A program made the position numbers and the translations under genes. This document shows, piece by piece, positions 15,515 to 56,720 of a stretch of DNA of 64,000 nt. The notes beneath the pieces were generated by a model, which was given only the letters and a program-made list of their open reading frames with translations, did no database searches and was not told where the DNA came from. The stretch lies in the IMG/VR virus record IMGVR_UViG_2571042390_000001; one strand, written 5' to 3'. The stretch's first letter is position 1. Each line of letters begins with the position of its first letter. Origin of the DNA: a virus. Its lineage: Duplodnaviria; Heunggongvirae; Uroviricota; Caudoviricetes.

Positions 15515-16221
15515 TGGGTATCTGCATTCTCGAAAAACTATCAATGACCAGCATTGAGATTGCGGAGCTGGTGGGAAGCCAACACTCTGACGTTAAACGT
15601 AGTATTGAGCGTATGGTTGCTCGAAGCATTATCCGAAAACCGCCAATGGCTGTTTTCGAAAAAATCAATAACTTAGGATTGCGTCGTGGCGTTGAGGCTT
15701 ACGTCTTCGAAGGCGAGCAAGGCAAACGAGACAGCATCATTGTCGTCGCGCAGCTCTCTCCCGAATTCACCGCCCGGCTGGTGGACCGCTGGCGCGAACT
15801 GGAAGAACAAGTACGCCAGCCGTTGACCGAAATAGAGATGATCGCTGCAATGGCTGCGAATGCAGTTCAGCAGCAAAAGCTGATTCATGCTGTTGAGTCA
15901 AAGGTTAGCCAGGTCGCTGAAACCGTCGAGCAAATAAAGAAAGGCAATATTCCGGAAGGCTACATTGGCTACCGCCAGTTGGCGGCGAAATGCGGCCTGA
16001 CTGAAGCCAAATGCCGAAACCTTGTCAACGCTTACCGGATTCCCACCGATACACATGAGTTTTTGACTCCAGAGGGGGTATTGTCGCGTCGTTCCATCGT
16101 GGCCTTATCTCCCTTCATGAATGCTTTTAACCGGATGATGTCGGAGGCTGAACACCGAGGAAAACGCTGGTATCACCCCAAAATGGGGCAATTCCAGGTG
16201 ATCGGTTGGGGAGGTGAGTGA
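15514..16221 (+). CDS. ant: Antirepressor-like protein (copy 1)
   Basis: 235 aa; N-terminus MTSIEIAELVGSQHSDVKRSIERMVA; C-terminal segment EGYIGYRQLAAKCGLTEAKCRNLVNAYRIPTDTHEFLTPEG nearly identical to 55779-56720. Confidence 0.7.
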   Translation: MGICILEKLSMTSIEIAELVGSQHSDVKRSIERMVARSIIRKPPMAVFEKINNLGLRRGVEAYVFEGEQGKRDSIIVVAQLSPEFTARLVDRWRELEEQVRQPLTEIEMIAAMAANAVQQQKLIHAVESKVSQVAETVEQIKKGNIPEGYIGYRQLAAKCGLTEAKCRNLVNAYRIPTDTHEFLTPEGVLSRRSIVALSPFMNAFNRMMSEAEHRGKRWYHPKMGQFQVIGWGGE

Positions 16222-16418
16222 TGGACATCATGCAGGCGGTAAAAAAAATCAGGGAAGGACAGGCTGAAGTGTGCCGCCGTAAAGCATGGAGTGTTGGTGT
16301 ATGGGCCTGGCCTGATAATTACTCTACTACCGGATGGTTTTGTATTAATGGACTCCAGATCCGGGAAGTTGATTTATCGACGGCTGATATAGTCGGTAAT
16401 GATTGGATCGTGACTTGA
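16221..16418 (+). CDS. Small DUF2829-like protein, split from the antirepressor by a TGATG junction
   Basis: About 65 aa; motifs CRRKAW and DIVGNDWIV match the C-terminal extension that is fused in frame in the second ant copy. Confidence 0.5.
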   Translation: MDIMQAVKKIREGQAEVCRRKAWSVGVWAWPDNYSTTGWFCINGLQIREVDLSTADIVGNDWIVT

Positions 16419-16426
16419 AGCGTGAT

Positions 16427-16452
16427 GCCCCGGCCTGGCCGGGGCTTTTTTC
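16427..16452. terminator. Bidirectional intrinsic terminator
   Basis: gccccgg-cctgg-ccggggc followed by TTTTTT. Confidence 0.7.
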
Positions 16453-16936
16453 ATGCCTCATTAGTTGAGGTTGCTGCGTCTCCGACTGGTAACAGGGCGG
16501 TATTGCGTGGTTCGCCAGCAGGCCAGCGATAGCCAGACACTCTTGATGTTGGGAATGCGCGAATATTAACCGCATCCCCCTGGTTCCCACCCAGGACAAG
16601 CAGATCGCCATTGGCGCGGCGTCCGACAACGAAGCCTACGTGCCCACCGCCTACGCGGGTAAATACAACGATACATCCGTATGCCGGTGTATCTAATTTC
16701 TCGCCCCAATCCAGATAGGATTTTGCCGACTCAAATCTTGTTGAGCGAATGCCTACACGTTCCAGCATTGCACCGACAAATGCTGCGCACCACGGCGTTT
16801 CATCGTCTTTAATTCCGCCGCGCTTGATGTCGCGCCAGAACTGAACGATTTCAGGGTTGTGTTTAGCGCCTTTTATTTCAGTCAAGCCAATGTGCTTACG
16901 GGCTTCAATTAGCCAGCGAGGTTCAATGTTTGCCAT
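16451..16936 (-). CDS. Putative papain-like (CHAP / NlpC-P60-like) peptidase
   Basis: 161 aa; candidate catalytic Cys in TPWCAAFVGAM and His in GGGHVGFVVG. Confidence 0.45.
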   Translation of the reverse strand: MANIEPRWLIEARKHIGLTEIKGAKHNPEIVQFWRDIKRGGIKDDETPWCAAFVGAMLERVGIRSTRFESAKSYLDWGEKLDTPAYGCIVVFTRVGGGHVGFVVGRRANGDLLVLGGNQGDAVNIRAFPTSRVSGYRWPAGEPRNTALLPVGDAATSTNEA

Positions 16937-17087
16937 ATTTTTCTCCCGGTCATGGGTTAATAAGTAGGCAAACTATGGGGAGTATGTGATTTTGACGGTA
17001 GTATCGTCCCCCTGAAAATAACATTCTCCATACCCTCTCAACCGTACCGCATAGCGGAATTTTTTACGGTTTAGAGGGGGAAATCCT

Positions 17088-20000
17088 TTGGACAAACTAC
17101 TTCATTCAATCAGTGAAGCCTCCAGCTTAGGCGAACTGATTGAAATTGTTAGTCGGTTGCATAAATTACGTGCTGTTGCGACCTTTGGCGTCAGGAAAGC
17201 CGATGGCGTCAGTATTCAGAAAACACGCCGGGCAGCAAACAATGCCGCAGTAAATCTTCTTAATTCCCTTCCGCCCGGCTTCGATGGGGCGAAATTAACT
17301 GACGAACAACGTCAGATTCTTGCTGGGTATACCGGTGAAGGCGGCCTGACAGATGGTGAGGGCAGCCAATACGAATACTACACGCCACAGTTTATGGCTG
17401 AAGGTATATGGGAGCTGTTTGCTGACTACGGTATTGATGGCGGTCACGTACTGGAACCATCAGCTGGCACGGGTATTTTCCAGGAGACAAAACGGCAGGG
17501 AATGATAATGACCAGCGCCGAGCTGTCTCCGATCTCCGGTCGAATCAACCAGCTGTTGCACCCGGAAGACGATGTGAACATTGGGGCGTTTGAGGCTCTG
17601 GCGGCGAAAGACGCAATGTATGACCACGCTGTTGGTAACGTACCGTTTGGCGAAGGCCGTTCCGGCGTTGCAGGGCTTGATCCGGCATATGCAAACGAGA
17701 AGAACGTTGGCAATTACTTTGTGCTGCGCACGATCGACAAGGTTAAACCTGGTGGGCTTATCGTATTGGTGGTGCCGAATGGCATGACTGATGGTACGAA
17801 ATACAAAAAATTGCGCGATAAAGTCAGCCGTAAAGCGGAATTTTTGGGCGCGCATCGTATGCCTTCCGGTACGTTCAGTGAATCAGGTACAGATACCGTG
17901 GTGGACGTATGGGTATTGCGTAAACACCCGGAAGCCTTCCTGGAGATGATCCCCGATACGGATGATTCGACGCTCAAATCGGCAAACGTCCTTTGGGTTA
18001 CCTTCCTCAAAGGGAAATGGTTTACAACCGAAGGGAAGCGATTTGTTTACGGCGACATGGAACGTACCAGCTTCCGCAATACCCTAGTGGTGAAAAAAGA
18101 CGGTCGTGTATCCAATGAGTCGATGAAAACCGCGCTATCTCGTCGCTTTGATAGTCGCATCAATTGGGATTTGCTCGGCGTAACTACTCAGGCATGGCAG
18201 GGCGCGAAAGTGGGCGATAAACGCCTTGTAGGCGGTATCTGGCATGAGTTTGATGGTCTGAAATGGGTTCAGGACACGACAACCAAATCCTCCGCGCTTG
18301 ATGTAAGTCGATATGGTGTTTCGACGTTTGGCGATCTGCAGATCGCGTTCCAGTCAACAAACGGGATTCTGGCTTTGTCATGGGACCAGATATCGGCGAT
18401 CGCGTCCGACTATCCATCGGTTGTCAGTGATGAAGTGGCAGCAATGATTCGCTTTGCTGGCAAGCAGCGAGAAAAAGACAGGGAGCGCGTTATGCGCGGT
18501 GCACTGATAGGTCAGTTGATCAACAAGGCACTTGATTTGCGTAACCTGGGGGTGAACGTTGATGACAAACTGGCAGATGCATCCCGCTTGGCGGCAGCAG
18601 AAGTTGCGAAGTATGGACCACCGCACGCGATTAAGCTGAATGGGCTTGCTGAAGCTGGCGCTAAAAACTGGATGACGTTCACTGGCAATGTGAAACAGGA
18701 TGGTTCCACTTCTGACCTTCTGGCAGGGCGACTTGATGTAACGGATGGTGCTGCCGGTATTGACTTTACGCGTCCTGAACAAGTGATAGCACATCTTTTT
18801 AGTGATGTAGCCCTTAATCCTATAACGCTGGGCGACTTTCGTGAGGCGTTTGCTGGTGAACTGCCAGAGGACGACGACGCGGTCCTTGAATACCTGGCGA
18901 AATTTGATGATATCGCTATTGATGGGTATGGCTGTCTGCTGCCGATGGACCGCGCCACCAGCGGCGATGTTGCAACCAAAACAGCACTGCTGGTGGGCTG
19001 GCGTGATGCGTCAACAGGTGAGCAGAAAGCGAACTTTGAGCGTCAGTTGGCGAAAATCGAAGAGAAACGCATTTTCACGCCACTAAATAAAGTCACCGTT
19101 AATCTGAATGCCCGCTGGCTGGATCGCCGCTTGATAAAAGAGTTCCTGGCAGAGCAGGGCTATGACGAGTTTAAGTACACTGAACCTGATCTGAAGGTCG
19201 TCGATGGCATTCTGGTATCTCCGGACGATTACGAAGGTAAGGACGGGGTATTTACCGGCTATCAGCTACGAACCGTAAACGGCAAAAACGGGAATGAGTT
19301 CAAGAAGGCCAACAATAAAGACGGCTTCCTGAACCAGTTAGAAAACTACCTGAACGGTGTTAAACCGCGTGGGCAGAACGCTAACGAGTACCTGGATAAA
19401 ATTGCTCAACTGGAAGTTAGCTTTAACGACTGGTTACGCACCCACCCGCAGGCGGATCAGATAGCCCGTGACTATAACGACGCATTCAATGGTTTCATTC
19501 CGTTCACACATTCTGACGCACCGCTTGGCCTGGAAGGGATTAGTGGAAAGCGCATTCCTCTGACTTATCAGAATGAAGAAGTTCGGCGCTTGTCAGAAGA
19601 TGGGCGTGGCATCATGGGATTTGGTACCGGGCTGGGTAAAACCACGACCGCGCTTGCGCTTGAGGCGTATAACTTCGAAACAGGTCGCACTAAACGCACG
19701 TGTATTGTTGTTCCGAAGGCGGTTTATCAGAACTGGTATCACGAGGCACAGAGTTTCTACAGTGCTGATGCCTTCGCCAATATGATGTTTATCGGTTTGG
19801 ATGAAGTTCGTGATGACAGCGGAAATATTCTGACCGCGCCGGTGCTTGATGAAAATGGCGAACCACGCCTCGACAGTAACGGGCAGCCTCTTACCAGAAA
19901 TGTTGTGAAAGAGTCCTCCAGCGCCGTTATCGTTCAGCGTATGAACATGATCCCGTCGTCAAATTGGCGAACGGTCATCATGACAAAAGAACAATTCGCG

Positions 20001-23000
20001 TCTATCCCGCTACGAGAAAAAACCATCGAGGAGAACTCACAGCAAGCTGTCTTTAATGCTGTGGAAATGGGGCGTCTTGACCTGGCGTCCGGTAAACACC
20101 GTGATGCGCAGAAGAAGAACAAGATTAAGGATCAGGCCGCGAATACCGGTACAACGAAGAAGCAGAATATCCCTTACTTTGAGGATATGAACTTCGATAG
20201 CGTGATTGCCGACGAGGGGCATAACTACCGCAACTCCTTTAATGCCGGGCGTGAAGCGGGACAACTGGCATATTTGCCTAACCCGGCAGTATCCAAGATG
20301 GCCCGCGACATGGCTGTAAAAGCTGCGTACATGATGAAACGCAACAACGGGCGTGGTGTAGTCATGCTGACGGCAACACCGCTGGTGAACAGTCCGATTG
20401 ATGCCTTCAACATGCTGTCTACTGTCATTCCGCAGGAAGAGTGGATGCGTATGGGCATCATTACGCCTGATGATTTCGTTCGTGTGTTTGGCAAAACAGC
20501 CACAGTTCAGGTCCAGAAAATTTCCGGGGAAGTGGAAGAGAAGCAGGGGCTGGTGGGCTTCCAGAACCTTGACGGCCTGCGTGGTATTTTCCATCGTTGG
20601 ACCACTCTGAAGACTGCTGCAGATGTCGGAGCGACGGTTAAAATTCCCGACATCATCGAGAACACCTTGCAGATCCCGATGACAGGGGAGCAGGAGACTG
20701 CTTATGAAGAGCTTCGTAAGCGTGCTCAGGAGTTAAGTCGCAATGATGAGCTGACAGTCGATGAAAACGGGCATATCACTAACGACAAACCGGATGATTT
20801 CATCTTCTCCATCATCCGTGACATGGATAAGGTTGCTATAGACCCGGATCTGTATGCCAGTGCGATTACATTCCAGTTCCCCGTTGAGCTTGCAGACCAG
20901 GTAAAAGCTATTGCTGATGCCTTGCCAAAAGTAGCTGGCGGTAAAGTGGCAGATGATGTTGATGAGGCCGAGGAAGACGGCGCTGGCGGGCTGGTCAGTA
21001 CGCGTACCAGCAAGGTAGTGAAGACCGCTTTTAGTGAACATCCGACGCATGTTGAAATACGTGCCAGCATTGAACTGGAAGCTGAAATACTGAAGGCCAT
21101 TGCGGCTGCCGGCATTGATATGCAGCAGGTGTCGCACCCCATCCCGCCGAAGTATGCCGCGCTGATCGAAAATCTTCGTGAAGGTCTGAAGAACGGTAAG
21201 CAGATCGTCTTTATTGATGAAAAAGCCCAGCACCAGAAGCTGCGCCGTATTATCGCCAGTGCACTGCAAATGCCGGAGCAGGAGATTGGCATTATCAATG
21301 CGACGACAGTTAGCCAGGCTGGTGGCATCAAGCTGAAGAAGGTGAATAAGCCGACCGAACCTACTCCAAACAAAAACGGTGAATACAAAGAAGGGGCATG
21401 GGAAACCTACTACAGCAAACTTGCCCAATATGAGGATTATCTCTCCGCTAAAAATGATGCTGGCCTTGAGGGCATGGAAGGTATTGCCGCCGACTATAAC
21501 GAAGGTCGCACGCGCATCATAATCTGTAACAAGAAGGCTGAAGTAGGTATTAACCTGCACATCGGGACAACCGATATCCACCACCTGACACTACCCTGGA
21601 CACCAGCCAGTATCGACCAACGAAATGGGCGCGGTGCGCGCGTAGGTTCACCGCAAGAAAAGGTCAATGTTCACTACTATTGTGGCAAAGGCACATTCGA
21701 CGACTTCCGTCTGGATACGCTGAAACGTAAGAAAGACTGGATCAAGATGGTGATGACATCCGACATGTCAGAGATCGCCAATGGTGATGCGGATGATGCT
21801 GATGAACGCGCCATTATGCTGGCGGCAAACCCGGAAGAACGCCGCGCAATCATGGCTCGCCAGGCGCAAGAGCGTGAAGAACGTCTGAAACTGAAAGCAC
21901 AGCGCGAGGCCAACAATGCTCTCGATATCTACCTGAAAGCGGCAAACGCCGCCGGAAAAGATATCGGCATGATGGAGACAGAACTGAAAAGCGCGATGGA
22001 ACAGATAGAGTATTACCAGCGCAATCTTGACGACCTGATAAAAGCGGGTACGAACAGGAATGGGCAAAAATACGCGCTTGAGCAGTTGAGTAGCTACAGA
22101 AAACGTGCGCGGGTGCTGCGGTTTGCGATCACCAGGGCAAAAGACGCGGATACCATAATGAAACGCTCTCGTGGTGATGTGGAGCGCGCTATTAAGTCTG
22201 GTGTGCTGGATATCAGTATCGATGTTATTCAGAACCCACAGGAATATATGCGCACTGACAAGAATATCCTGTTGCATAAAGGTAGTTATTACCGTGCAGT
22301 CATTGATGATCGCGAAACAACAGCGATTGTCCGGGTGGAAAAAATTGACGGTGAAAAAGCACAATACCTCTGCCGTATCGCCTGGCTGGATAGAGCAAGT
22401 CGTTACGCTCGAGCACCGGGGTCAATCGTTACATTGCCGTTTGACTCTGTGATTGAAGCGGTAACTTTTGAAGAGGGGGTAGCTGAATCGCGCGCAACGG
22501 CTGCGCGTGGTGTTCAGTGCCACCAGCTATCAACAATACTTACTCGCGATCAGTTCTATGATGCTATTCGCAATGGGGTAATGAATGTTATTGCTGGTAA
22601 ACCTGGTAATGCATGGGGCGGTGGGTCAGCTATTAAATACTGGGCATATCGCACAGATGATGGTCAGATCGCGCTGTCATCGGCCTATGATGGCGTGATA
22701 GGCCAAAAAATCGGGCGAGCATCGGATATAGCACCTGAGCGATGGATATATCCTGATGGCAACGACGAGGCGCTGAAGCGTGAAGTGGCAAAAATACAAG
22801 CCAGTGATAACCCGCTGAATATCGTGGACGGCGAGGGATTCCTCCAGGCATTGTATGGGTATGATTACACCCAGGGAATGCAGGCATGGGGCGCACAGGC
22901 AACGATGGATGATGTTGCCCATGAGTTCGAAAACTGGATGGCTGGGCGTGGTCTGTCAGGTCGTTCGCTTAATAAAGTCACTTCTGAAGATATTCTTAGC

Positions 23001-25303: not shown

Positions 25304-25504
25304 TTGCGGTTACTTAACGTGGCAGAACTTATCCCTGCAGGAACTAATGCTATCGCTCGTCGTCGCTCATGGCAGCAGGCTCTATGTATTGAGATCTCGA
25401 AACGTATCAATGGAAGTTTTGAAGCTCGCAATATTGTTACTGGCGATAAGGTTCACATAACCCCGGAAAGTGCAAGCGCTGATGATTGGGAGTTTGTACA
25501 TTGA
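25304..25504 (+). CDS. Small DUF2829-like protein
   Basis: 66 aa; AIARRRSW and DDWEFV motifs; TTG start after RBS ggaga. Confidence 0.45.
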   Translation: MRLLNVAELIPAGTNAIARRRSWQQALCIEISKRINGSFEARNIVTGDKVHITPESASADDWEFVH

Positions 25505-28357: not shown

Positions 28358-28432
28358 GATGGTGTAGCTCAGCGGTAGAGCAGTTGGCTGTTAACCAACT
28401 GGTCGGTGGTTCGAATCCACCCACCATCGCCA
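28358..28432 (+). tRNA. tRNA-Asn (anticodon GTT)
   Basis: 75 nt with CCA; acceptor gatggtg/caccatc, T-arm ggtgg-ttcgaat-ccacc, anticodon loop ctGTTaa. Confidence 0.85.
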
Positions 28433-28437
28433 ATTTA

Positions 28438-28524
28438 GGGGAGTTAGTCCGTAGGGGTAGCGGGGTAGACTGTAAATCTACTGTCATTGCGACTCGGGTG
28501 GTTCGACTCCATCACTCCCCACCA
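28438..28524 (+). tRNA. tRNA-Tyr (anticodon GTA), type II with long variable arm
   Basis: 87 nt with CCA; acceptor ggggagt/actcccc, anticodon arm gtaga-ctGTAaa-tctac, variable arm gtcattgcgac, T-loop ttcgact. Confidence 0.7.
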
Positions 28525-28528
28525 AATT

Positions 28529-28604
28529 GCCGGTTTAGCTCAGTTGGTAGAGCAGTCGCTTTGTAAGCGAATGGTCAGCGGTTCGATCCCGTTAACCGGC
28601 ACCA
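28529..28604 (+). tRNA. tRNA-Thr (anticodon TGT)
   Basis: 76 nt with CCA; acceptor gccggtt/aaccggc, anticodon loop ttTGTaa, T-loop ttcgatc. Confidence 0.85.
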
Positions 28605-29574: not shown

Positions 29575-29650
29575 GGCCCTTTAGCTCAGTGGTTAGAGCG
29601 GGCGACTCATAATCGCACGGTCACCGGTTCAAGTCCGGTAGGGGCCACCA
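29575..29650 (+). tRNA. tRNA with CAT anticodon (Met or lysidine-modified Ile)
   Basis: 76 nt with CCA; acceptor ggccctt/aggggcc, anticodon loop ctCATaa, T-arm accgg-ttcaagt-ccggt. Confidence 0.85.
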
Positions 29651-30102: not shown

Positions 30103-30678
30103 ATGTTAATGGCGAACGATAACGCATATACAGAAGAAGATCTCATTTTGAGTGACTTCATAGGGAAGCGTGAACGCTGGACCCAAAAGCGAGAGGAAAT
30201 TTACGCCTCATTAGTTCGCAAAGGCGTCAATATCGAAACCGCACAGAGCGGCGATATGACAGTGGTAAGCGTTGGATTGCACGGTGTAAGCGTGTCAGCA
30301 ATCAATCATGAGCCATACGTTGCGTTATCCGAGTCAATGGTAAGGTTAGTTAAGTTCCTGAAATACACAGAAGCGAATAATGTAATCATTGGCAAAAAGA
30401 ATATCCCTTTTTCCTCGGCTTTTTACTGGATGATGAAAGGGCTTGATGCCCGGCGGACATCATGGCCCAAAGGGAGCTATATATCGATGTTCCGTGGCAG
30501 TATTGGCAGCAAAGAAAAGCTCTTCGAATTCTTGCCGGAAGAGGCATTCGATATTGTGGAAGGGTGCGATGTGATGGTGATGCCTCGCCTGGTAATGATG
30601 AATGGGGATTTACAGGCGCAGACAGACTGGTTTGCAACTGGTGTGGATATTATCGCGACTGACTGGGAGGCTTTCTGA
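30103..30678 (+). CDS. Hypothetical protein with C-terminal DUF2829-like domain
   Basis: 191 aa; C-terminal part FSSAFYWMMKGLDARRTSWPKG ... QTDWFATGVDIIATDWEAF. Confidence 0.55.
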   Translation: MLMANDNAYTEEDLILSDFIGKRERWTQKREEIYASLVRKGVNIETAQSGDMTVVSVGLHGVSVSAINHEPYVALSESMVRLVKFLKYTEANNVIIGKKNIPFSSAFYWMMKGLDARRTSWPKGSYISMFRGSIGSKEKLFEFLPEEAFDIVEGCDVMVMPRLVMMNGDLQAQTDWFATGVDIIATDWEAF

Positions 30679-37819: not shown

Positions 37820-38310
37820 TTTACGTAAAAGTGAAACGCCTACATCCGGCAGCAAAACTTCCAGCTTATGCCACCTCCGGATCGGCGGCGATGGATTTTG
37901 AGGCTGTTGAAATAAAACCATGCGTCGATAGCAATGGTGCAATTTCCTCAAGCTGGTGGGTGTATACCGGACTGGCTATGGAGATCCCGCCCGGCTGGTG
38001 TCTGAAACTCTATCCGCGATCCGGATTGGGCTGCAAAAAACATACTCGCCTGGCTAACTGCGTAGGAATTATCGACTCCGATTATCGCGGCGAAATCATG
38101 GCAAAACTGATTACTGATCCCGGCGGGGAAGGCGTTTGTCTCAAGCCTGGAATGGCGGTCATGCAAGGCATTTTTGAGCGTGTTGAACCGGTATCGCTGG
38201 TAGAAGTTGATGAACTCGATGAAACAGAGCGAGGTGCTGGTGGCTTTGGTAGCACATCGGAAGACCGCATTGAAATCAAGCGTACACCGCTTCAGTACGA
38301 AAAGTTTTAA
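37816..38310 (+). CDS. dut: dUTPase
   Basis: dUTPase motifs YPRSGLG, GIIDSDYRGEI and RGAGGFGSTS. Confidence 0.85.
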   Translation: MIYVKVKRLHPAAKLPAYATSGSAAMDFEAVEIKPCVDSNGAISSSWWVYTGLAMEIPPGWCLKLYPRSGLGCKKHTRLANCVGIIDSDYRGEIMAKLITDPGGEGVCLKPGMAVMQGIFERVEPVSLVEVDELDETERGAGGFGSTSEDRIEIKRTPLQYEKF

Positions 38311-38324
38311 GTAGAGGAAAGATT

Positions 38325-38987
38325 ATGGCCAGCACTTTTCAGGTGTTCCCCAAATACAAAAGCCACAGCATCATTCGGGCATCGAAAATCAAAGATATTG
38401 TTATTGTCGGCGAAGCTTATGCGCCCATTTTTGGCAGTATCGAAGTCGTTGAGCCAAAAGGAATGACGCTTCGTGTTGATGGTGTGTTCTTGGAAAAATT
38501 CCGACCGCAAATAGGAGGATATCTCGTCACTGCTGAAAATGGCTATCTGGTCTATGTGCCAGAGAAAGCATTTGAAAAATGCTATAGCCGGGTTAACGAC
38601 GCCTCCGAAAATGGGGTATCGCTCAGCATTGAAGGTCACAATGGGGTGACATTCATTACAGCCAGGGACGTAACTATTTCTGCTGGCGGTATCGCTACTC
38701 TACAAGAAGAAATCGACCTTGAAGCAGCCGACTTTTCTGACGCGCTGATGTGGCTGAAGGATGGCAAGAAAGTTGCCCGACGTGGGTGGAACGGCGAAAA
38801 CCAATTCTGCTGGCTGGTTCCCGAAGGACAGTACCCGGCACGAATGGAAGCCATTAAGGGATATTTCCCCGGCGATCTCGTTCCGTATGGTGCTTATTTC
38901 GCCTTAAAAAATGCACAAGGTGTAGTTGTTCCGTGGGTTCCTTCTGTAGGCGACTTACTGGCATGTGACTGGTTTGTGGTGGAGTGA
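38325..38987 (+). CDS. Two-domain protein with C-terminal DUF2829-like domain
   Basis: 220 aa; C-terminal FSDALMWLKDGKKVARRGWNG ... VPWVPSVGDLLACDWFVVE. Confidence 0.6.
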   Translation: MASTFQVFPKYKSHSIIRASKIKDIVIVGEAYAPIFGSIEVVEPKGMTLRVDGVFLEKFRPQIGGYLVTAENGYLVYVPEKAFEKCYSRVNDASENGVSLSIEGHNGVTFITARDVTISAGGIATLQEEIDLEAADFSDALMWLKDGKKVARRGWNGENQFCWLVPEGQYPARMEAIKGYFPGDLVPYGAYFALKNAQGVVVPWVPSVGDLLACDWFVVE

Positions 38988-49906: not shown

Positions 49907-50192
49907 TGGTTGCCTCCGCTTCCCACGTTTTCAGACTTTCACCACAGAATGGGCAAAATGAAACTCGAATAGGCGATTTAGAAAATTCACCAGACCGCAG
50001 CATGATCAGGTCTTGTGAATGAATTAATTCATGGTTATAGATTTTGTATTTCAGCAGACCTTTCCGCGTCGTGTATTCAGCATCCTGCTCCAGAGATTGT
50101 GCCAACGCCGCGCACGGTTCTATTTTTTTGTCATTAATCAAACAAGTGGAGATTCTGCACTTTGCAGCTCCGTCACCATTACCTTGACTCAT
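49899..50192 (-). CDS. Hypothetical small Cys-containing protein
   Basis: 97 aa; CPFCGES motif. Confidence 0.4.
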   Translation of the reverse strand: MSQGNGDGAAKCRISTCLINDKKIEPCAALAQSLEQDAEYTTRKGLLKYKIYNHELIHSQDLIMLRSGEFSKSPIRVSFCPFCGESLKTWEAEATSE

Positions 50193-50205
50193 TGCATTGC
50201 TCCCA

Positions 50206-51201
50206 TCAGTTATTGAACGTGATCACTCCGCGCTCAATGGCGAAGTCGAAAAGCTGGTTAGCGGCTACGTAAAGGCGTATGCCATGTGCTTTTTCCCATG
50301 CCCGGACATCGTTTTCTGCGCTTCTGGCGCAGTCATCGCAAAGAGGAACAGTCCAGCGGTCGTGTTCGTTTAACGAGCGGGCGCGGTACATGAATGGGTG
50401 ATTAACCTTGCCGCCGCAGCCTACACACGGGCGAGACACCACAAACCGGAGATAAGCCGGGCTTTTTCCGAGTAAGGTTTTTGGACGGCGCATATATAGG
50501 AGGCCAGAATCTTCATCGACGGACAGATTGACGATCTGCTCTGCGGAAATATCCACCAGCTCGCGGGTACTATGCTCCCAAGTAATATCCGACTCTTTCA
50601 GAGTGCCGGTAGGGATTTCAGTTTTTGGCTGACAAAATGCAATGCGACCAGCTTCATCAGGCAGTTCGTCTTTAAGATTCCGGCGAATGGCCCAAAAGGT
50701 GAGTTCAACCATGCTCAGATCGCGATCTGGCGGAAGTTTTAACTCGCTGGCAGCCCAGTTCATAATCCAGTTGGCGCGATTCAGTGACAGTTGGTCTTCC
50801 AGCTTGCCGTATCCCTTCATCATGTATTCCGCATCATGCTTCCAGCACAGGCGAACGGCAGAACCGTTATAGAAATGGGTGGTTAGCTGGTGGCTGCAAT
50901 CGCGCTTATCATGCACCTGGCAATCGTGAATGTTGGTGCTAACCCAGTGAACGAGAGAATCCTCACCACCTAACGCGTTAAATACGCGCTCACTTTGAAA
51001 AAAGGGTGCCAGTGACTGGTTGGCAACCAGTGAATAATTCAGGTCAACGACACCATCAGGGGTGTTTTCAGCCTGTTCACGCGGCAATGGGGATATAAGA
51101 AAACGGCGTCCTGCGCCGATGTAATTGCTGGTGGGCTTATCTACAGGAAAGACAGCCACACCAGTTTCATTTACGACATATGGGGTGATTATTGCACTCA
51201 T
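50206..51201 (-). CDS. Hypothetical protein, DUF968-like by recollection
   Basis: 331 aa; C-terminal CVGCGG ... CDDC cluster; operator pair directly upstream. Confidence 0.45.
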   Translation of the reverse strand: MSAIITPYVVNETGVAVFPVDKPTSNYIGAGRRFLISPLPREQAENTPDGVVDLNYSLVANQSLAPFFQSERVFNALGGEDSLVHWVSTNIHDCQVHDKRDCSHQLTTHFYNGSAVRLCWKHDAEYMMKGYGKLEDQLSLNRANWIMNWAASELKLPPDRDLSMVELTFWAIRRNLKDELPDEAGRIAFCQPKTEIPTGTLKESDITWEHSTRELVDISAEQIVNLSVDEDSGLLYMRRPKTLLGKSPAYLRFVVSRPCVGCGGKVNHPFMYRARSLNEHDRWTVPLCDDCARSAENDVRAWEKAHGIRLYVAANQLFDFAIERGVITFNN

Positions 51202-51240
51202 AATGCATACCGACTCTGTTTTGTTCCGATCGGTAAAATA

Positions 51241-51275
51241 ATATGTTAGAAAACTAAAATCAATGTTCTAACGTG
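51241..51275. promoter_or_regulatory. Pair of divergent operator-like motifs
   Basis: atatgttagaaaactaaaatcaatgttctaacgtg. Confidence 0.5.
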
Positions 51276-51429
51276 ATTTTGAGTGCGTAAATGATTTGAT
51301 CAGACTTTAAGCTGCCCTCCCTTCACCTGCATTAGCGTCAGATTTCCGCTAAAAACCGCGCCCGTGTCTAGTTTCTATAGCCAGAACCATCAATACGGCT
51401 ATATAAATTCACTTCATGCAGAGCCTGGG

Positions 51430-51741
51430 TCATGCGGCAACCTTCTCACGCAGCCAGATACAAACCGGACCATCTTCAGTGTCATGAATAGAGCCAACAA
51501 ACCAGCCTTCACCCTCTGGTCGCTCCGGTTCCCAGGCGGCAATATCGGGACCAGCTGCGTCCAGATCAAAATCATCTTCATCCATACTGCGAATAGTCCA
51601 CTGAAGATTATTTTCCTTCATCCAGGCGTCAAATTCCTCAGTGGAAATATATTCACGACCTGCGCAAAACTTCTCATACTCCGGATGTGTCCAGCAGCCA
51701 TATTCATCACGTTCTACCGGCATTTCTTTAATTGTGTTCAC
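51430..51741 (-). CDS. Hypothetical acidic protein
   Basis: 103 aa. Confidence 0.45.
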   Translation of the reverse strand: MNTIKEMPVERDEYGCWTHPEYEKFCAGREYISTEEFDAWMKENNLQWTIRSMDEDDFDLDAAGPDIAAWEPERPEGEGWFVGSIHDTEDGPVCIWLREKVAA

Positions 51742-51962
51742 TCTTCATCCTCCAAATCAGCAACCGCGTCCATCACATCAGAACCGCGAATAACTTCAAA
51801 AGCGCGGCAGGCCATTTGAAATACCCGTTGCTCTTGCGGGTGCGGAGACTCCCAATATTTGAAGCCTGGGCGATGCGTGTACCCCATCATGGAATAAAAA
51901 TCGCCAGCAAGTTCAATCGCGGCATCAACAAGTTCGCGATTTGTCATCGTCTGTTCTGTCAT
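51738..51962 (-). CDS. Hypothetical acidic protein
   Basis: 74 aa; overlapping stop/start. Confidence 0.4.
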   Translation of the reverse strand: MTEQTMTNRELVDAAIELAGDFYSMMGYTHRPGFKYWESPHPQEQRVFQMACRAFEVIRGSDVMDAVADLEDEE

Positions 51963-52234
51963 TTGGTTTTCTCCTGTCTGAACATCACTATCATCAGGTC
52001 GCCTTTTGTCGCTATTCTGGCTGTTGTGCCTGGTTCAATGCGGCTAAGTTCAAATGCGTCATAGAACGCTTCTAATGCCTTCTGGCGTAGTTCCTGTTTG
52101 CGCCGTTTTTTCCACTCTTTTAGGAAAATGGAACCCAGCCATCGCCAGGTACGGGACATGATGTAAAGCCAACCAAGAAGTGCCAGACCGGTATTTAGGG
52201 CCGTATCGAGCGTTATCGTGGTGTCGATATTCAC
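51959..52234 (-). CDS. Small membrane protein
   Basis: 91 aa; hydrophobic N-terminal half. Confidence 0.4.
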   Translation of the reverse strand: MNIDTTITLDTALNTGLALLGWLYIMSRTWRWLGSIFLKEWKKRRKQELRQKALEAFYDAFELSRIEPGTTARIATKGDLMIVMFRQEKTK

Positions 52235-52479
52235 TGTGGTGGTTCCTGCTTTTCTGCCTTCAATACCATGCGAGAACCATCATCCAGCTCCCAATTAATT
52301 TCACCGCCTTCTGCCATGACCAGATGCCAGACGAGTTGAGCGGCCTCGTTGGTTACATCACGACCGCGATCATTGCCAACACGACGTTTTGTTCCATCCC
52401 CTAAGTCACGCATTTTTGCCAACACGATGGTTTTTGATAGCGGTGAAAAACCAAGCTGTAGTCGTGCGGTATTACTCAC
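52231..52479 (-). CDS. Hypothetical protein
   Basis: 82 aa. Confidence 0.4.
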   Translation of the reverse strand: MSNTARLQLGFSPLSKTIVLAKMRDLGDGTKRRVGNDRGRDVTNEAAQLVWHLVMAEGGEINWELDDGSRMVLKAEKQEPPQ

Positions 52480-52482
52480 TGT

Positions 52483-52986
52483 TTACCTTCCTTTTCTAAG
52501 CTGTTCGGCGATATCTTCGAGAACGCCATCAGAGAATGAGCGGTCAAAATCGCCTTCCCGCGCATTAGCCATAAACTCAGTAGAGGTAAGAATCATCCGG
52601 GCAATATCCGCGGCGTTCTTCGCAGTATCATCAATAAAACCAGCTTCCCAAGCAGCCAGCATCCTGTTCGCCACAAAGTAAGCGCCCTCCTTGCGTGCTT
52701 CAGTCTTCACTTCATCCAGGAAAGTGTCGGTCGCAGGAGTGGTTTTTTGTGGTGATAGGGCGAGACGAATTGTTTCGAGAGCTGGATCTATTTCCACTGT
52801 TGGCACCTTGATAAAGCCAAGCTGCACGCCATTCATAATGAACGTGCGGCGATCCTCACATATCGCATTCAGTCTCGCATTCTCCGCCGCCAGCGCAGCA
52901 CACGCTTTCTCAAGTCGGGAAATTTCCGTTACATACTCAGCGTTACGCTCTGCCAGTTGTGCTGGCGTTAAACCTTCAGACTTCAT
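52483..52986 (-). CDS. Ead/Ea22-like family protein
   Basis: 167 aa; TDTFLDEVKTEARKEGAYFVANRMLAAWEAGF shared with paralogues. Confidence 0.5.
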   Translation of the reverse strand: MKSEGLTPAQLAERNAEYVTEISRLEKACAALAAENARLNAICEDRRTFIMNGVQLGFIKVPTVEIDPALETIRLALSPQKTTPATDTFLDEVKTEARKEGAYFVANRMLAAWEAGFIDDTAKNAADIARMILTSTEFMANAREGDFDRSFSDGVLEDIAEQLRKGR

Positions 52987-53293
52987 GTACTCTCCTTTCG
53001 AAATAAACGTACTGATTAATCATGCCCAGGGGCATTTCGAGTTTTTCCGCGATCTCACGGCGGGGAACACCACACTGATGAAGCTGCCGCGCCAGTTCTA
53101 TATCGCTCTGCCGGAATTTGGCTGACGGATGAAAGTCTCCTTTCAGAATCATGCTGATCCCCAACTCCCGCGCTTTAGTCCTGACGGCATCACCGGTACG
53201 ACCGATCAGCTTCCCAATACTCTCGACCGTCATAGTTCCGGCGCACTGGCGGAGTATCATGATTTCTGCCCTTCCCCATCCCCGCCAGCTCAC
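52976..53293 (-). CDS. Small DNA-binding-like protein with two HTH-like segments
   Basis: 105 aa; SIGKLIGRTGDAVRTKAREL and GVPRREIAEKLEM. Confidence 0.4.
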   Translation of the reverse strand: MSWRGWGRAEIMILRQCAGTMTVESIGKLIGRTGDAVRTKARELGISMILKGDFHPSAKFRQSDIELARQLHQCGVPRREIAEKLEMPLGMINQYVYFERRVHEV

Positions 53294-53928
53294 GCAGAAC
53301 TCCTTCTAACCAAAAGAACGCCATCTTCAGAAACAACGTTGCAGGACTTCAGGTAATTCATTGCCTCTTTCGGTAATGGATTCTTTGGATCGGCGTTTGC
53401 CAGGGATTTCGATAACCTCATGATAAATTTGATCATTACCTTCTGGCGGAGCTTGTGCTCATGAGATAAAGACAGGTAATAGGAAATGGTATGGGCTAAA
53501 CGCTCACGAAGCTGTTCTGTGCCGTGATATACAGCAGCGATATCACGCAGTGCATTGACCAGTTCCCGGTAAATATGCGGAGCAACCTGGCATTCAATGT
53601 TGGTTGGTGACTCATAAATTACAGTCAGCCCCAGCTTTTCAGCCAGCGCGTGCTCTGCGCGAGCACCAACCGATTCTTCCCATCGATTGAGCAAGTAGAT
53701 CGCATCAGCAGAACGCACCATTGCCAGGCAAATATCCATGTATTCACTCTGACAAAGGCCACCAGGTAACATAGCTGGATTCAGAACGATATGCCCTTCA
53801 GCCATCAACTCGCTCGCTTTCGCATTAAACGCCGCACGGTTGTAATCTGGATAACCAGTCATCGGCCCCGCGATGTAAATTTTCAAAACACGTTTCACCA
53901 TCAAAATTTCCCCAGAATCGTGACGCAA
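53290..53928 (-). CDS. Protein with N-terminal nucleoside 2-deoxyribosyltransferase-like (DUF4406-like) domain
   Basis: 212 aa; LKIYIAGPMTGYPDYNRAAF and AEHALAEKLGLTV; first gene after the operator at about 54100. Confidence 0.4.
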   Translation of the reverse strand: MRHDSGEILMVKRVLKIYIAGPMTGYPDYNRAAFNAKASELMAEGHIVLNPAMLPGGLCQSEYMDICLAMVRSADAIYLLNRWEESVGARAEHALAEKLGLTVIYESPTNIECQVAPHIYRELVNALRDIAAVYHGTEQLRERLAHTISYYLSLSHEHKLRQKVMIKFIMRLSKSLANADPKNPLPKEAMNYLKSCNVVSEDGVLLVRRSSA

Positions 53929-54093
53929 AACATAAGCACTGCGAAAAGCTCAATACCAAGCTCAAGTAGCGCCAACGCCCCGAAAAACAACACATAGAAC
54001 AGGCCAATCTCATTCACAGATGGCTGGTGGATCGCACTTAAAGCTATAAGCATCATGTCCTCCAAACAGTTATCAGGAATGATATTAATGTTT

Positions 54094-54112
54094 TGTGTTA
54101 GAAAATCAATTT
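54094..54112. promoter_or_regulatory. Operator-like motif between divergent operons
   Basis: tgtgttagaaaatcaatt. Confidence 0.5.
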
Positions 54113-54173
54113 TGAATATCTAACCATTTTGATCAATCATAGAAAAATCGTTGAAAAGTAAGAGACTGCCATC

Positions 54174-54752
54174 ATGCAGAAACAGAGTTATTGGGAGAAA
54201 CAGAGACAAAAAGCCATGCAAAAATTGGCTGACCCGGCCTGGCGAGAGGAACAAAGGGCAAAGCGCCTTCAACAAGCTCAACGCCAGCAGCAGCGAGCGA
54301 GAGAAAAAGCCGCATCGCCTGAATATCGGCAAAAGAAAATTGAAAAAGCAAAGCAATATGAACAGCGGAGAAAAGATAAAGCTGTATCCGCTCCGTCCAA
54401 AAAAACACGCACGTCACGCGGCCTGAAAGGCAGATCACTCACAGCCGATGAACGCCGGATACAGACCGCTATCGGTGCTCTCCCCTGCATTGCCTGCCAT
54501 ATTCACGGGCAACATAGCCCAGTGGTATCCCTGCACCATATCTTCGGGAGAACGGCAGAGAACGCGCATAAATATGTCCTCCCTTTGTGTAAATGGCACC
54601 ACCAGTACGCAGCGCCAGCCGAGGTCAGAGAACAATATCCCTGGCTGGTCCCTGTTCATGCTGACGGAAAAATAGGCGGAAAAGCAGATTTCATGCGGCA
54701 CAATGCCGATGAAATGACGTTGTATCAGATGGCGATTGAGTTGATAAATTAG
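54174..54752 (+). CDS. ref: Ref-like HNH endonuclease (recombination enhancement function)
   Basis: 192 aa; basic N-terminal region and HNH-type core LPCIACHIHGQHSPVVSLHHIFGRTAENAHKYVLPLCKWHH. Confidence 0.75.
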   Translation: MQKQSYWEKQRQKAMQKLADPAWREEQRAKRLQQAQRQQQRAREKAASPEYRQKKIEKAKQYEQRRKDKAVSAPSKKTRTSRGLKGRSLTADERRIQTAIGALPCIACHIHGQHSPVVSLHHIFGRTAENAHKYVLPLCKWHHQYAAPAEVREQYPWLVPVHADGKIGGKADFMRHNADEMTLYQMAIELIN

Positions 54753-54767
54753 TTTTCTAACATTTTA
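54750..54767. promoter_or_regulatory. Operator-like motif upstream of the second icd/ant module
   Basis: ttagttttctaacatttt. Confidence 0.5.
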
Positions 54768-55389
54768 AGTTGAATTGAAAAACTCTCCGATGTACATTCA
54801 CTACCGATTGGCACACCGGTCAACTTTTTGAGACAAACTGTTTAGTTTTTCGTATTATTGCCTCCGCCATACCTATGGCGGTGCAATATAGGTGGCTGAA
54901 AAGCCCCCGTTGACTCACGGTGTTCCAGCCTTTATTGCGCCGCCACCAGACCGTGGAACAGTCGATGGCGGCTCCGAAAGCAAGGAGTCACAACACTATG
55001 AACAACTACAGTCTTTTCCCATCACTCGTCTTCCACCACTCACGCGATAATCTGCATTCTTTGCTCGCGCCGGGGGTGTCAAAATGACTGTTCGCTACCT
55101 CAACTTTCAAATCAAGAACATTACTGGCGGTTGCTATGACTGGTTTGTCACTCTCGGAAAAGAAGTGATCACCGGGAAGCTGGATGAAGTGAAAGCTAAA
55201 GCAATGGCCTACGCCTGCAAGCAAGTCAGGAAGAAATCCGCCAAAGCATAAAATACTGACTGTTGCGCCCTGGCATTATCGTGGGGTATATTTCTACGGC
55301 ACCTTAGAAAAACGGGTGCCGGGATTGGAACCCCGGATAATGTCAAAGGCGACACAGACGCCGAACGCGTCTTTTTTTGTGTCATGCCA

Positions 55390-55560
55390 TCGCACAGCCA
55401 TACTTAGCGTTTAGCTCAGAGATCAATGGTAGTGCTGGCTGGGCTGCCGAAAGGCAGGCCGGTTCCCTTTGACGCCGGTAGTTCCAACCCAGTCAGTGCT
55501 ACCGCCATTGAGATTGGAACCTCACGCGGTAGCTCCTTAACTTAGTCAAAGGAGGCTGCC
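55390..55560 (+). ncRNA. Candidate c4-type antisense regulatory RNA locus; boundaries not defined
   Basis: ORF-free, hairpin-rich leader between operator and icd-like gene, where P1 places c4; no sequence match verified. Confidence 0.2.
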
Positions 55561-55563
55561 AAT

Positions 55564-55779
55564 ATGGCTACTATCCCTACCCCAACTCATTCTGAATTTA
55601 TCTGGCGTTTCTATTCCTGCCAAAAACACCTGTATATCTGCGTCATGGCTGCTACCGAAGCAGAGGCGCGCTCATACCTTCCCGAAGAACCCTGCATTTT
55701 TGCTGCTCGCTTCACTCTTGATGCGATGGAGATCCTCAATTACTGGAATCTGCCGATGAACTGCGTGGAGGTGCACTGA
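55564..55779 (+). CDS. icd: Icd-like small protein (copy 2)
   Basis: 71 aa; EFIWRFYSCQKH ... AATEAEARSYLPEE; strong RBS aaggagg. Confidence 0.6.
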   Translation: MATIPTPTHSEFIWRFYSCQKHLYICVMAATEAEARSYLPEEPCIFAARFTLDAMEILNYWNLPMNCVEVH

Positions 55780-56720
55780 TGAATCTGTCCATCTCTCAAA
55801 AAGCGACAATGACCAGTATTGAGATCGCGGAACTGGTGGGAAGTCGTCACTCTGATGTTAAACGCAGCATCGAAAGACTTGTTGCTAAAGGAGTTATCCA
55901 ACATACGCCATTGGCTACAGTTGAGAATAATCAATCACTTAGCCCTAATAAATACACAAAAGCCTATTTCTTCGAAGGCGAACAAGGCAAGCGCGATAGT
56001 ATTGTCGTCGTCGCGCAGCTCTCTCCCGAATTTACCGCCCGGCTGGTGGACCGCTGGCGCGAACTGGAGAATGCCCGGGTACAGTTAAAATCAAAAGCCG
56101 AAATCCTGGCTGAAATGGCGCAAATGCATCTTGAGCATGAACGCCGGATCAACGCCGTAAATGCCCAGGTAGCCGAGGTATCGGCACAAGTGTCCAGGGT
56201 CGCTGAAACCGTTGAGCAAATCAAGAAAGGCAATATGCCGGAAGGCTACATTGGCTACCGCCAGCTGGCGGCGAAATGTGGCCTGACTGAAGCCAAATGC
56301 CGTAACCTTGTCAACGCTTACCGGATTCCCACCGATACACATGAGTTTTTGACCCCCGATGGCTTGCTTGCGCGACGCTCCATTGTGGCCCTTGCCCCCT
56401 TCCGGAAAGCCTTTAAGCAGGTGATGTCGGAGGCAGAACCACGCAATAAACGCTGGTATCATCCAAAGATGGGGATGTTTCAGGCAATCCACCATCCTGT
56501 GCCTGAAAGCCCAAAGGATAATCTGTCACTACATACCGCCAGAGAGAAGATCAGGACTGGATACGCAACAGTGTGTCGTCGTTCTTCCTGGCCTGAAGGT
56601 ATATGGGTGTGGCCCGAAGGTGGATCACGAAAGCACTGGCGCACCATCCGTGACGGGAAAATCCATGCTATTGATTTAGCTCCAGAGGATGTTATTGCTA
56701 TGGACTGGATTGTTAGTTAA
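55779..56720 (+). CDS. ant: Antirepressor-like protein fused to a C-terminal DUF2829-like domain (copy 2)
   Basis: 313 aa; N-terminus MTSIEIAELVGSRHSDVKRSIERLVA; C-terminal extension VCRRSSWPEGIWVWPEG ... DVIAMDWIVS. Confidence 0.75.
   Translation: MNLSISQKATMTSIEIAELVGSRHSDVKRSIERLVAKGVIQHTPLATVENNQSLSPNKYTKAYFFEGEQGKRDSIVVVAQLSPEFTARLVDRWRELENARVQLKSKAEILAEMAQMHLEHERRINAVNAQVAEVSAQVSRVAETVEQIKKGNMPEGYIGYRQLAAKCGLTEAKCRNLVNAYRIPTDTHEFLTPDGLLARRSIVALAPFRKAFKQVMSEAEPRNKRWYHPKMGMFQAIHHPVPESPKDNLSLHTAREKIRTGYATVCRRSSWPEGIWVWPEGGSRKHWRTIRDGKIHAIDLAPEDVIAMDWIVS

Follow-up and report, generated by a model that had tools for sequence, protein, structure and literature searches.

Tad2 is a phage-encoded sponge for bacterial immune signals, and it is among the main known means by which phages disarm signalling immunity (Thoeris, CBASS and Pycsar). 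The sponge is a homotetramer with pockets at the protomer interfaces. In HgmTad2 numbering, the residues of the gcADPR/His-ADPR pocket are W21, N22 and G23 of the GWNG loop together with W87, S90, T92 and D93 (10.1101/2023.11.15.567273). Sponges are typically short homo-oligomers, and Tad2 is often fused to further domains, other sponges included (10.1101/2025.07.12.664507). Taken as a whole, the Tad2 family acts on five types of system. Tad2_68 was positive against Thoeris types I and II (Table S2 of 10.1101/2025.08.24.671296); in the 2025 screen Tad2_72 inhibited Thoeris I, and Tad2_69 and Tad2_80 inhibited 0 of 7 Thoeris, CBASS and Pycsar systems. Among short members, Tad2_75 (69 aa) inhibits a CBASS and Tad2_79 (80 aa) inhibits Thoeris I/IV; the family is functionally very plastic, and a member without the canonical pocket may still be a sponge. 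A second system of reference is the immI operon of phage P1, in which C4 antisense RNA, icd and ant1/ant2 follow one another.

Putative Tad2-fold domains of a D6-like phage-plasmid

The stretch of DNA analysed here (64,000 nt, referred to as the window) belongs to a D6-like, P1-family phage-plasmid of E. coli, and is 100% identical to plasmid NZ_CP035876.1 and 98.5% identical to phage D6. Such phage-plasmids are common in E. coli and Salmonella, with 110-229 plasmid records. A preliminary description had proposed five segments with an N-terminal basic motif and a C-terminal DW motif, and all five were found, motif by motif (Table 1). When the window and the whole phage D6 genome were scanned in all six frames, these five segments, c1 to c5, came up and no sixth. 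Of the 803 ORF segments from the six frames of the window, the pattern RR..W / DW[IVFEL][VAFI] matched only c1, c2, c3 and c5; relaxed to RR.{1,2}W and applied to the 1,125 segments of the entire D6 genome, it picked out the five copies and nothing else. In Smith-Waterman alignments compared with 500 shuffles, z-scores were 26 for c1 with c5, 8.1 for c2 with c5, 6.5 for c3 with c4, 4.6 for c3 with c5 and 4.1 for c2 with c3. This selectivity and these z-scores place the motif pattern beyond chance. All of c1-c5 appear to have helix alpha1 as well as the RR(x)xW strand and the C-terminal DW strand, with the DW 2-3 residues before the domain end in every copy (5/5). All five are under selection and kept in D6-like elements, and the positions of c2 and c3 are unchanged in a relative that is only about 50% identical.

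DUF2829 is indeed PF11195, the Tad2 family, and c4 scored 80.2 bits against it. With the Pfam gathering threshold of 25 bits as the membership cut-off, the expected profile match was borne out for c4 and for c3 (39.3 bits), and failed for the other three. c1 scored 15.1 bits (E 0.034, model positions 1-72 of 73), and c2 and c5 had no listed PF11195 match in the Pfam search. NCBIfam holds no model for any of the copies. On structure and profile evidence, the assignment to the PF11195 family is right, with c4 and c3 above the threshold and c1, c2 and c5 as probable remote members.

Table 1 Positions of the Tad2-fold copies and immI features in the window
Feature	Position (nt)	Strand	Description
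First immI module	15037-16221	+	upstream of c1
a1b1 targets	15037-15089	+	Rfam RF03163, 55 bits
C4 antisense RNA, first module	15157-15242	+	Rfam RF01695, 69 bits
icd-like gene (icd1)	15290-15514	+	first module
Rha-type antirepressor Ant1	15514-16221	+	Pfam Phage_pRha, phrog_63 Ant
c1	16221-16418 (ATG; alternative GTG 16218)	+	stand-alone, 65/66 aa; CRRKAW...DWIV; last gene of first immI operon
Intrinsic terminator	16427-16445	+	8-bp all-GC stem, then T-run; closes icd1-ant1-c1 operon
c2	25304-25504 (TTG start)	+	stand-alone, 66 aa; RRRSW...DWEF; between pmgM-like (VRR-NUC) and pmgR-like genes
c3	30103-30678	+	191 aa; uncharacterised N-terminal domain (1-98) and divergent full-size Tad2-like domain
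c3 Tad2-like domain	30397-30678	+	residues 99-191; RRTSW...DWEA
c4	38325-38987	+	220 aa; Dec-like OB-fold domain, linker, canonical Tad2 domain
c4 OB-fold domain	38346-38600	+	about residues 8-92; Dec-like
c4 Tad2 domain	38718-38987	+	residues 132-220; ARRGWNG...DWFV
Second immI module	55299-55779	+	upstream of ant2::c5
isrK-like RNA	55299-55377	+	Rfam RF01394, 61 bits
C4 antisense RNA, second module	55422-55509	+	Rfam RF01695, 77 bits
icd-like gene, second module	55564-55779	+	D6 annotation: orf83, Icd-like
Antirepressor Ant2	55779-56720	+	carries c5 at C-terminus
c5	56523-56720	+	Ant2 residues 249-313; CRRSSW...DWIV; minimal Tad2-fold domain fused to Ant2

The full-size copies c4 and c3

The Tad2 domain of c4 is like the known sponges (SPO1 gp34.65, MoTad2 9EIB, HgmTad2/AcrIIA7 8KBI, SptTad2 8WJD and Tad2_68) in length, motifs and pocket residues. 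A phmmer search of the PDB matched it to MoTad2 (9eib, 5.9e-20) and also to 8v3e, HgmTad2 (8kbi) and SPO1 Tad2 (8sme), and it shares 45% identity with the solved MoTad2 and 68% with Tad2_68. Among the five copies, only c4 retained the pocket (GWNG loop with W87, S90, T92 and D93): W21, N22, G23, W87, S90 and D93 are kept, and the full row reads W,N,G,W,S,G,D against W,N,G,W,S,S,D in MoTad2. Judged from its sequence, c4 is likely a working anti-Thoeris sponge. By analogy with its close tested relative, it would form the usual homotetramer and sequester TIR-made ADP-ribose signals (3'cADPR and/or His-ADPR), which would block activation of the Thoeris effector upon phage infection or induction.

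Known Tad2 sponges are stand-alone proteins of about 90 aa, whereas in c4 and c3 the domain forms the C-terminal part of a larger protein. In c4, the N-terminal domain matched no Pfam family, which ruled out Acb4 and Sequestin as its identity. Searched as a profile of 12 homologues against the PDB, it matched residues 23-100 of phage L Dec (6e3c_C, E 1.3e-6), and the single-sequence search gave the same protein at E 0.0019. The match lies in the OB-fold region of Dec (PDB 6E3C); c4 itself stands outside the capsid module. Its neighbours are early or plasmid genes (a cre-like recombinase and dut). In the reference D6 genome the OB domain has been removed by an in-frame deletion, and in three relatives (P0027, P0029 and P0030) the order is reversed, with Tad2 preceding the OB domain. 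Acb4-Tad2 of Pasteurella phage Pm86 and Sequestin (PF21825)-Tad2 likewise join Tad2 to a second small domain, with the partner on either side, but the Dec-like partner in c4 has no known sponge activity. The Tad2 plus 6E3C-like architecture was deliberately left out of the published sponge screen and Tad2 dataset, so the c4 fusion may act unlike a stand-alone Tad2.

c3 possesses all Tad2 secondary-structure elements, and its homologues carry a precomputed PF11195 match. The sole PDB match of its family profile was SptTad2 (8wjd, E 0.011), and hhalign aligned it to the c4-type profile with a probability of 93%; by single-sequence phmmer, c3 gave no Tad2 match in the PDB. In place of GWNG it has SWPKG, and of the pocket it keeps W21, M76, W87 and D93, with P at position 22 and G23 gone. 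The nearest recognised members to c3 and to c1/c5 are Tad2_69 (80 aa, ARRASWPQG), Tad2_80 (73 aa) and Tad2_72 (108 aa, RRKAWPKN), in which, as in these copies, 'RRxxWP' replaces GWNG. Shuffle z-scores of c3 were 17.1 to Tad2_69, 13.1 to Tad2_72 and 10 to Tad2_80. We assign c3 to the 'RRxSWPxG' subclass, as a probable full-size but divergent Tad2 fused behind an uncharacterised N-terminal domain. Its closest tested relatives are mixed, Tad2_72 being active on Thoeris I and Tad2_69 on nothing, and c3 might work as a sponge, with altered specificity.

Minimal copies and the immI operons

Compared with the Tad2 sponges, c1, c2 and c5 are cut down to 66 residues and go unrecognised by Pfam. All three lack the beta3-beta4 hairpin and the beta2-beta3 insertion, which build both known pockets; 10-11 of 12 pocket positions are lost, and positions 76-88 are absent throughout. 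c1 and c5 retain W21 and D93 (c1 also S90) and c2 retains W21 only, while c1 and c5 share a conserved Trp-rich strand (W24, W29, W31, W40). Purifying selection acts on all three. From these losses we infer that none of the three is still a canonical sponge. All appear to be lineage-specific derivatives that retained the fold core (helix alpha1, RR..W strand and DW strand) and shed the hairpin and insertion along with nearly all pocket residues.

c1 matched phrog_7385 and had a z-score of 6.3 to Tad2_80, with values of 5-6.3 for c1/c5 to their nearest tested relatives, and the spacing from W to DW in Tad2_80 (about 38 residues) is that of the minimal copies. Tad2_69, Tad2_80 and Tad2_72 are stand-alone metagenomic proteins, whereas the D6 modules are joined to an antirepressor, by fusion or coupling, or lie within a late operon. 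Word-indexed protein searches yielded 5 relatives for c2 and 7 for c1/c5, all close, and 4 of 11 members of the c1/c2/c5 families gave weak PF11195 matches (best E 0.012). A narrow Tad2 HMM, made from the top 150 relatives of c4, scored c1 at 7.9, c5 at 4.5 and c2 at 1.4 bits, a profile too c4-like to settle the question. The domains of c1, c2 and c5 had no Tad2 match in the PDB by single-sequence phmmer, and the mini-family HMM matched nothing relevant there. By tblastn (E <= 0.01 for the c5-type domain), the c2, c3 and c5 domains were absent outside D6 from 50,697 phage records, and an IMG/VR scan for the c5 domain returned only loci at least 86% identical. One 81-aa c5-like ORF (P0010) is an Ant remnant adjoining an integrase and IS elements, a context that is uninformative.

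In both immI modules a C4 RNA is followed by an icd-like gene and an antirepressor on the same strand, as in P1. The differences from P1 are that two modules are present rather than one, that the antirepressors are of the Rha/Roi type and that a minimal Tad2-fold domain closes each module. The icd-like and Ant1 genes of the first module are annotated as orf18 and orf19 in D6. c1 has a GGAGG Shine-Dalgarno upstream, and its start and the stop of ant1 overlap in TGATG. The idea that c1 is the frameshifted pseudogene tail of ant1 was ruled out by its own Shine-Dalgarno, the stop-overlapping start, the terminator and the identical arrangement in D6. The P1 C1 operator consensus ATTGCTCTAATAAATTT gave no match at up to 3 mismatches. 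The two C4 RNA-icd-ant operons are paralogous and differ in having ant1 and c1 split and ant2::c5 fused; this split/fused association with the antirepressor shows that the minimal domain is functionally linked to Ant. The c5-type domain has a dN/dS of 0.10 against 0.31 for the Ant body, and identity between the paralogues is 40% in the minimal domain and 69% in the Ant body. c2 lies in a late morphogenesis operon. The minimal copies are more likely small oligomerisation or partner-binding modules held in fixed stoichiometry with their partners, which would be Ant1 for the translationally coupled c1, Ant2 for the fused c5 and the pmgM/pmgR late proteins for the coupled c2.

Functional readings and their meaning

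Taken together, we favour, at a probability of about 0.5, a reading with c4 as a canonical sponge, c3 as a divergent Tad2 and c1, c2 and c5 as minimal derivatives serving as interaction modules, so that the Tad2/DUF2829 superfamily would occur in three functional grades in one D6-type phage-plasmid. A likely sponge (c4), a possible one (c3) and three derived modules make a better reading than the battery of five sponges suggested earlier, in which every copy would be functional and tuned to a different immune nucleotide, together neutralising several defences (Thoeris I/II/IV, CBASS, Pycsar and others). That suggestion finds support only in c4; c3 might also qualify, and in c1, c2 and c5 the hairpin and most of the pocket are gone. 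The breadth of the Tad2 family, its active members of 69-80 aa, the frequency of fusions, also to other sponges, and the selection on all five copies speak for a battery, and the Trp-rich strand of c1/c5 could stack on bases. However, the closest tested relatives of the minimal copies, Tad2_69 and Tad2_80, inhibited none of the seven systems, C4-RNA/immI control governs c1 and c5 along with an antirepressor, and the late operon of c2 would be poor timing for early anti-defence, so we consider five working sponges quite improbable. It is unlikely, if less so, that only c3 and c4 are real Tad2 and that c1, c2 and c5 form an unrelated D6-specific family of small beta-barrels with convergent RR..W/DW motifs and fold.

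The domain on Ant2, and c1 with Ant1, might also bind a small molecule and gate the antirepressor, placing the lysis-lysogeny switch under a metabolic or immune signal. The parent fold binds nucleotides, in two immI operons the domain is joined to Ant by fusion or translational coupling, and its low dN/dS, yet low identity between paralogues, would fit specificity determination. Against this, the minimal domains have lost nearly all pocket residues, their nearest tested relatives are without known ligand, c2 is of the same module type and attached to no regulator, and a domain confined to D6-like elements has no precedent in the phage database; we consider such a sensor very improbable. There is likewise a small chance that the 66-residue module is a new sponge-derived class that couples the immI antirepressor and lysis-lysogeny switch to a small-molecule signal, for example a host immune nucleotide, or a mini-sponge for a signal outside current screens.

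For D6-like phage-plasmids, standard annotation finds one DUF2829 gene where the fold has five members. As a likely sponge, c4 predicts Thoeris resistance of these plasmids and of many P1-like ones, which bears on the spread of phage-plasmids, including those that carry resistance genes. In the minimal copies, the sponge fold appears to have been cut down and reused, next to an antirepressor in two cases and within a late operon in the third. Should these copies bind something, the ligand and functional range of the family would be widened; should they bind nothing, a sponge fold would have become a structural or interaction module. In both cases, caution is needed before each 'Tad2-like' match is taken as an anti-defence gene.

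Five copies of a Tad2-like domain and their family assignment

A 10-kb stretch surrounding c3 and c4 showed 100% identity to the E. coli plasmid NZ_CP035876.1 and 98.5% to Escherichia phage D6, a phage-plasmid of the P1 family. The preliminary description had listed five dispersed copies of a DUF2829-like domain (c1 to c5), and all segments were present with the motifs it gave, DW lying 2-3 residues before the domain end in every copy. Of 803 six-frame ORF segments in the window, the regular expression RR..W...DW[IVFEL][VAFI] matched only c1, c2, c3 and c5, and the form with RR.{1,2}W matched exactly the five copies among 1,125 segments of the complete D6 genome; six-frame motif scans of the window and the whole D6 genome gave no sixth copy. 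Smith-Waterman z-scores against 500 shuffles were 26 (c1-c5), 8.1 (c2-c5), 6.5 (c3-c4), 4.6 (c3-c5) and 4.1 (c2-c3), which link all copies in a single network.

Tad2-like copies and neighbouring features in the window (pocket residues numbered as in HgmTad2)
Feature	Coordinates	D6 counterpart	Setting or content	Pocket
c1	16221-16418	orf17	after Ant orf18 and Icd-like orf19	W21, S90, D93 kept; entire 76-88 hairpin and insertion lacking
c2	25304-25504	orf11	between pmgR- and pmgM-like genes	only W21 kept; entire 76-88 hairpin and insertion lacking
c3 (C-terminus)	within 30103-30678	orf6, annotated hypothetical		W21, M76, W87, D93 kept; GWNG replaced by SWPKG
c4 (C-terminus)	within 38325-38987	orf114, sole copy annotated DUF2829		W, N, G, W87, S90, D93 kept; MoTad2 pattern
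c5 (C-terminus of Ant2)	within 55779-56720	C-terminus of Ant orf82	after Icd-like orf83	W21, D93 kept; entire 76-88 hairpin and insertion lacking
c4 N-terminal domain	38346-38600		Dec-like OB fold
isaA homologue	38994-39761		gene after c4
tRNA genes (four)	28358-28601, 29575-29647		directly upstream of c3 operon
immI module 1	15037-16445		RF03163 a1b1 targets (15037-15089), C4 RNA (15157-15242), icd1, ant1, c1, terminator
immI module 2	55299-56720		isrK-like RNA, C4 RNA (55422-55509), icd2, ant2::c5

DUF2829 is indeed the Tad2 family, Pfam PF11195 being named 'Tad2-like'. The profile itself (gathering score 25 bits) recovered c4 (80.2 bits) and c3 (39.3 bits), but c2 and c5 were unmatched and c1 stayed below threshold (15.1 bits, E 0.034), yet with an alignment spanning model positions 1-72 of 73; across the families of these three copies, 4 of 11 members gave weak PF11195 matches (best E 0.012). 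Among solved structures, c4 matched MoTad2 (9EIB, 5.9e-20), 8V3E, HgmTad2/AcrIIA7 (8KBI), SPO1 Tad2 (8SME) and SptTad2 (8WJD); SptTad2 was the lone PDB match of the c3 family profile (E 0.011), and hhalign aligned c3 with the c4-type profile at 93% probability. A c3 homologue in GCA_036607165.1, a divergent D6-like relative (10001-10576, 55% identical, PF11195-containing), bears the NCBI name 'MW1434 family type I TA system toxin'. This label is at odds with published work on Tad2 sponges and seems to be an outdated, mistaken annotation of DUF2829 proteins.

That the short copies (c1, c2, c5) are not homologous to Tad2 at all is improbable, though of the alternatives considered it is the one to be taken most seriously. 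PDB sequence searches with them, the profile of their family (mini family) included, yielded no Tad2. On the other side, the mini family scored 27.4 in hhalign with the c3 domain (P 8.8e-5), where none of 30 column-shuffled controls exceeded 15.6, and 24.4 with the c4-type profile (P 2.4e-4), where the control maximum was 17.8. In six-frame scans c1 ranked third behind c4 and c3 with the Tad2 profile, and c3 was the top non-member with the mini profile. Shuffle z-scores to Tad2_69 and Tad2_80, divergent homologues recognised as Tad2 by the Sorek laboratory (10.1101/2025.08.24.671296), were 5.7 and 6.3 for c1 and 5.0 and 5.9 for c5; c2 reached 4.5 to Tad2_69. The predicted structure of c5 was poor (pLDDT 68), yet in comparison with it Tad2 structures took ranks 2 and 4.

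Ligand pocket and tested relatives

SPO1 Tad2 is built of helix alpha1 and a five-stranded sheet and assembles as a tetramer whose pockets lie where protomers meet (10.1101/2023.05.01.538930). In HgmTad2, gcADPR is contacted by W21, N22, G23, M76, A78, T82, V84, W87, L88, S90, T92 and D93, and the cyclic-dinucleotide site lies in the beta2-beta5 insertion (10.1101/2023.11.15.567273). Judged from a seven-sequence alignment, the short copies appear to keep the fold core (alpha1, RR..W, DW) and not the pocket.

Sequences of 18 tested Tad2 homologues are available (Table S2 of 10.1101/2025.08.24.671296). Tad2_68 (87 aa), active on Thoeris I and II, shared 68% identity with the c4 Tad2 domain over 82 ungapped residues, and the tested-homologue results thus make c4 a strong anti-Thoeris candidate. 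Of the tested proteins, those closest to c3 and the short copies were Tad2_69 (80 aa, ARRASWPQG) and Tad2_80 (73 aa), the latter with the same W-to-DW spacing as c1, c2 and c5; both inhibited 0 of 7 systems, while Tad2_72 (RRKAWPKN) inhibited type I Thoeris (10.1101/2025.08.24.671296).

Gene contexts and fusion partners

The short ORFs are genuine genes. A GGAG Shine-Dalgarno sequence precedes the TTG start of c2, whose stop overlaps the next gene's start, and c2 is translationally coupled within the pmgM-c2-pmgR-pmgS late operon; it was full-length in 110 plasmid records. In GCA_036607165.1 its position is kept between VRR-NUC (pmgM-like) and pmgR-like genes by a homologue (5784-6002, 51% identical, dN/dS ~0.13) that the record's gene finder missed. 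In c1, a GGAGG Shine-Dalgarno sequence precedes an ATG that overlaps with the stop of ant1 (TGATG), and the gene is followed by a strong terminator. Between the window and D6 dN/dS was 0.10 for the c5 domain versus 0.31 for the remaining Ant2.

Rfam searches showed two complete modules of the immI type, each with a C4 antisense RNA, an icd-like ORF and a Rha-type antirepressor, as against a single one in P1; in module 2 the isrK-like RNA stands in place of the a1b1 targets. Ant1 and Ant2 were 69% identical over 230 residues, the Icd-like ORFs 43% and c1 and c5 40%. The mini-domain is split from Ant in one paralogue (ant1 + c1) and fused to it in the other (ant2::c5), classic evidence that it would work physically with Ant. 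Expression of c1 and c5 is linked to immI derepression and not to a dedicated early anti-defence locus. An 81-aa ORF annotated 'transcriptional regulator' (4001-4246 in three other E. coli contigs) comprises just the end of an Ant and a c5-like mini-domain. Its neighbours are IS elements and a tyrosine integrase, and it is probably left over from recombination.

The c4 N-terminal domain matched Dec, the decoration protein of phage L, in its OB fold (PDB 6E3C, profile E 1.3e-6). Among the 150 best relatives of the c4 Tad2 domain, 77 were extended N-terminally by 40 residues or more, 36 were stand-alone, and the OB-like domain recurred as a fusion partner on either side of Tad2. The published Tad2 screen left out proteins also bearing PF21825 or a 6E3C-like domain; PF21825, another frequent partner of Tad2, was later shown to be the sponge family Sequestin, found precisely via Tad2 fusions (10.1101/2025.07.12.664507), so the Dec-like domain may likewise merit sponge testing. 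The c3 N-terminal 98 residues matched nothing known. Upstream of c3, the tRNA genes scored 42-76 bits (RF00005); the D6 counterpart region has three annotated tRNAs (Ser, Thr, Asn), Ser with a note that tRNAscan-SE left its amino acid uncalled.

In D6 itself, orf114 (38126-38566) carries an in-frame deletion of ~79 codons (146 vs 220 aa) that removes the OB-fold core and keeps the linker and Tad2 domain, and in GCA_036607165.1 the interval from dut to the isaA-like gene contains no c4; c4 is therefore an accessory gene. It also occurs in P1-like plasmids (229 plasmid and 159 phage records). The following gene is a homologue of P1 isaA, an 'IS1-associated' gene, and the c4 homologue of phage RCS47 adjoins an inverted repeat and carries the annotation 'part 1', which suggests that the Tad2 locus is an IS insertion site in some P1-like elements.

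Proposed roles of the five copies

From its identity to an active homologue and its intact pocket, we propose, with a probability of roughly 0.65, that c4 would form a Tad2-type tetramer sequestering 3'cADPR and/or His-ADPR and so block Thoeris. A sponge of altered specificity is a tentative reading for c3. The short copies are reduced derivatives without the canonical pocket. Judging by context only, their most likely role is that of small modules for oligomerisation or partner binding, acting with Ant1, Ant2 and the pmgM/pmgR proteins.

Of the battery of sponges first envisaged, only c4 is supported as a candidate; for the short copies no precedent speaks for sponge activity, and their nearest tested relatives had no effect on the seven systems. 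Sponge activity in them is conceivable because the Tad2 family is plastic, and short members such as Tad2_75 (69 aa, against CBASS) and Tad2_79 (80 aa, against Thoeris I and IV) are active (10.1101/2025.08.24.671296); that all five domains are sponges is nevertheless quite unlikely. Slightly less likely still is a ligand-sensing role for the Ant-linked modules, which their link to a regulator might invite and their loss of pocket residues speaks against. Partner-binding modules stay our preferred reading of the short copies, and the original interpretation is supported in part.

Tad2 and its fusions were already known, and c4 is another member. New are three minimal Tad2-fold modules scoring below the Pfam threshold, which searches of phage records (50,697) and IMG/VR placed only in D6-like elements; two of them are wired into duplicated immI antirepressor operons. 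The family-level finding is solid and of use for annotation.
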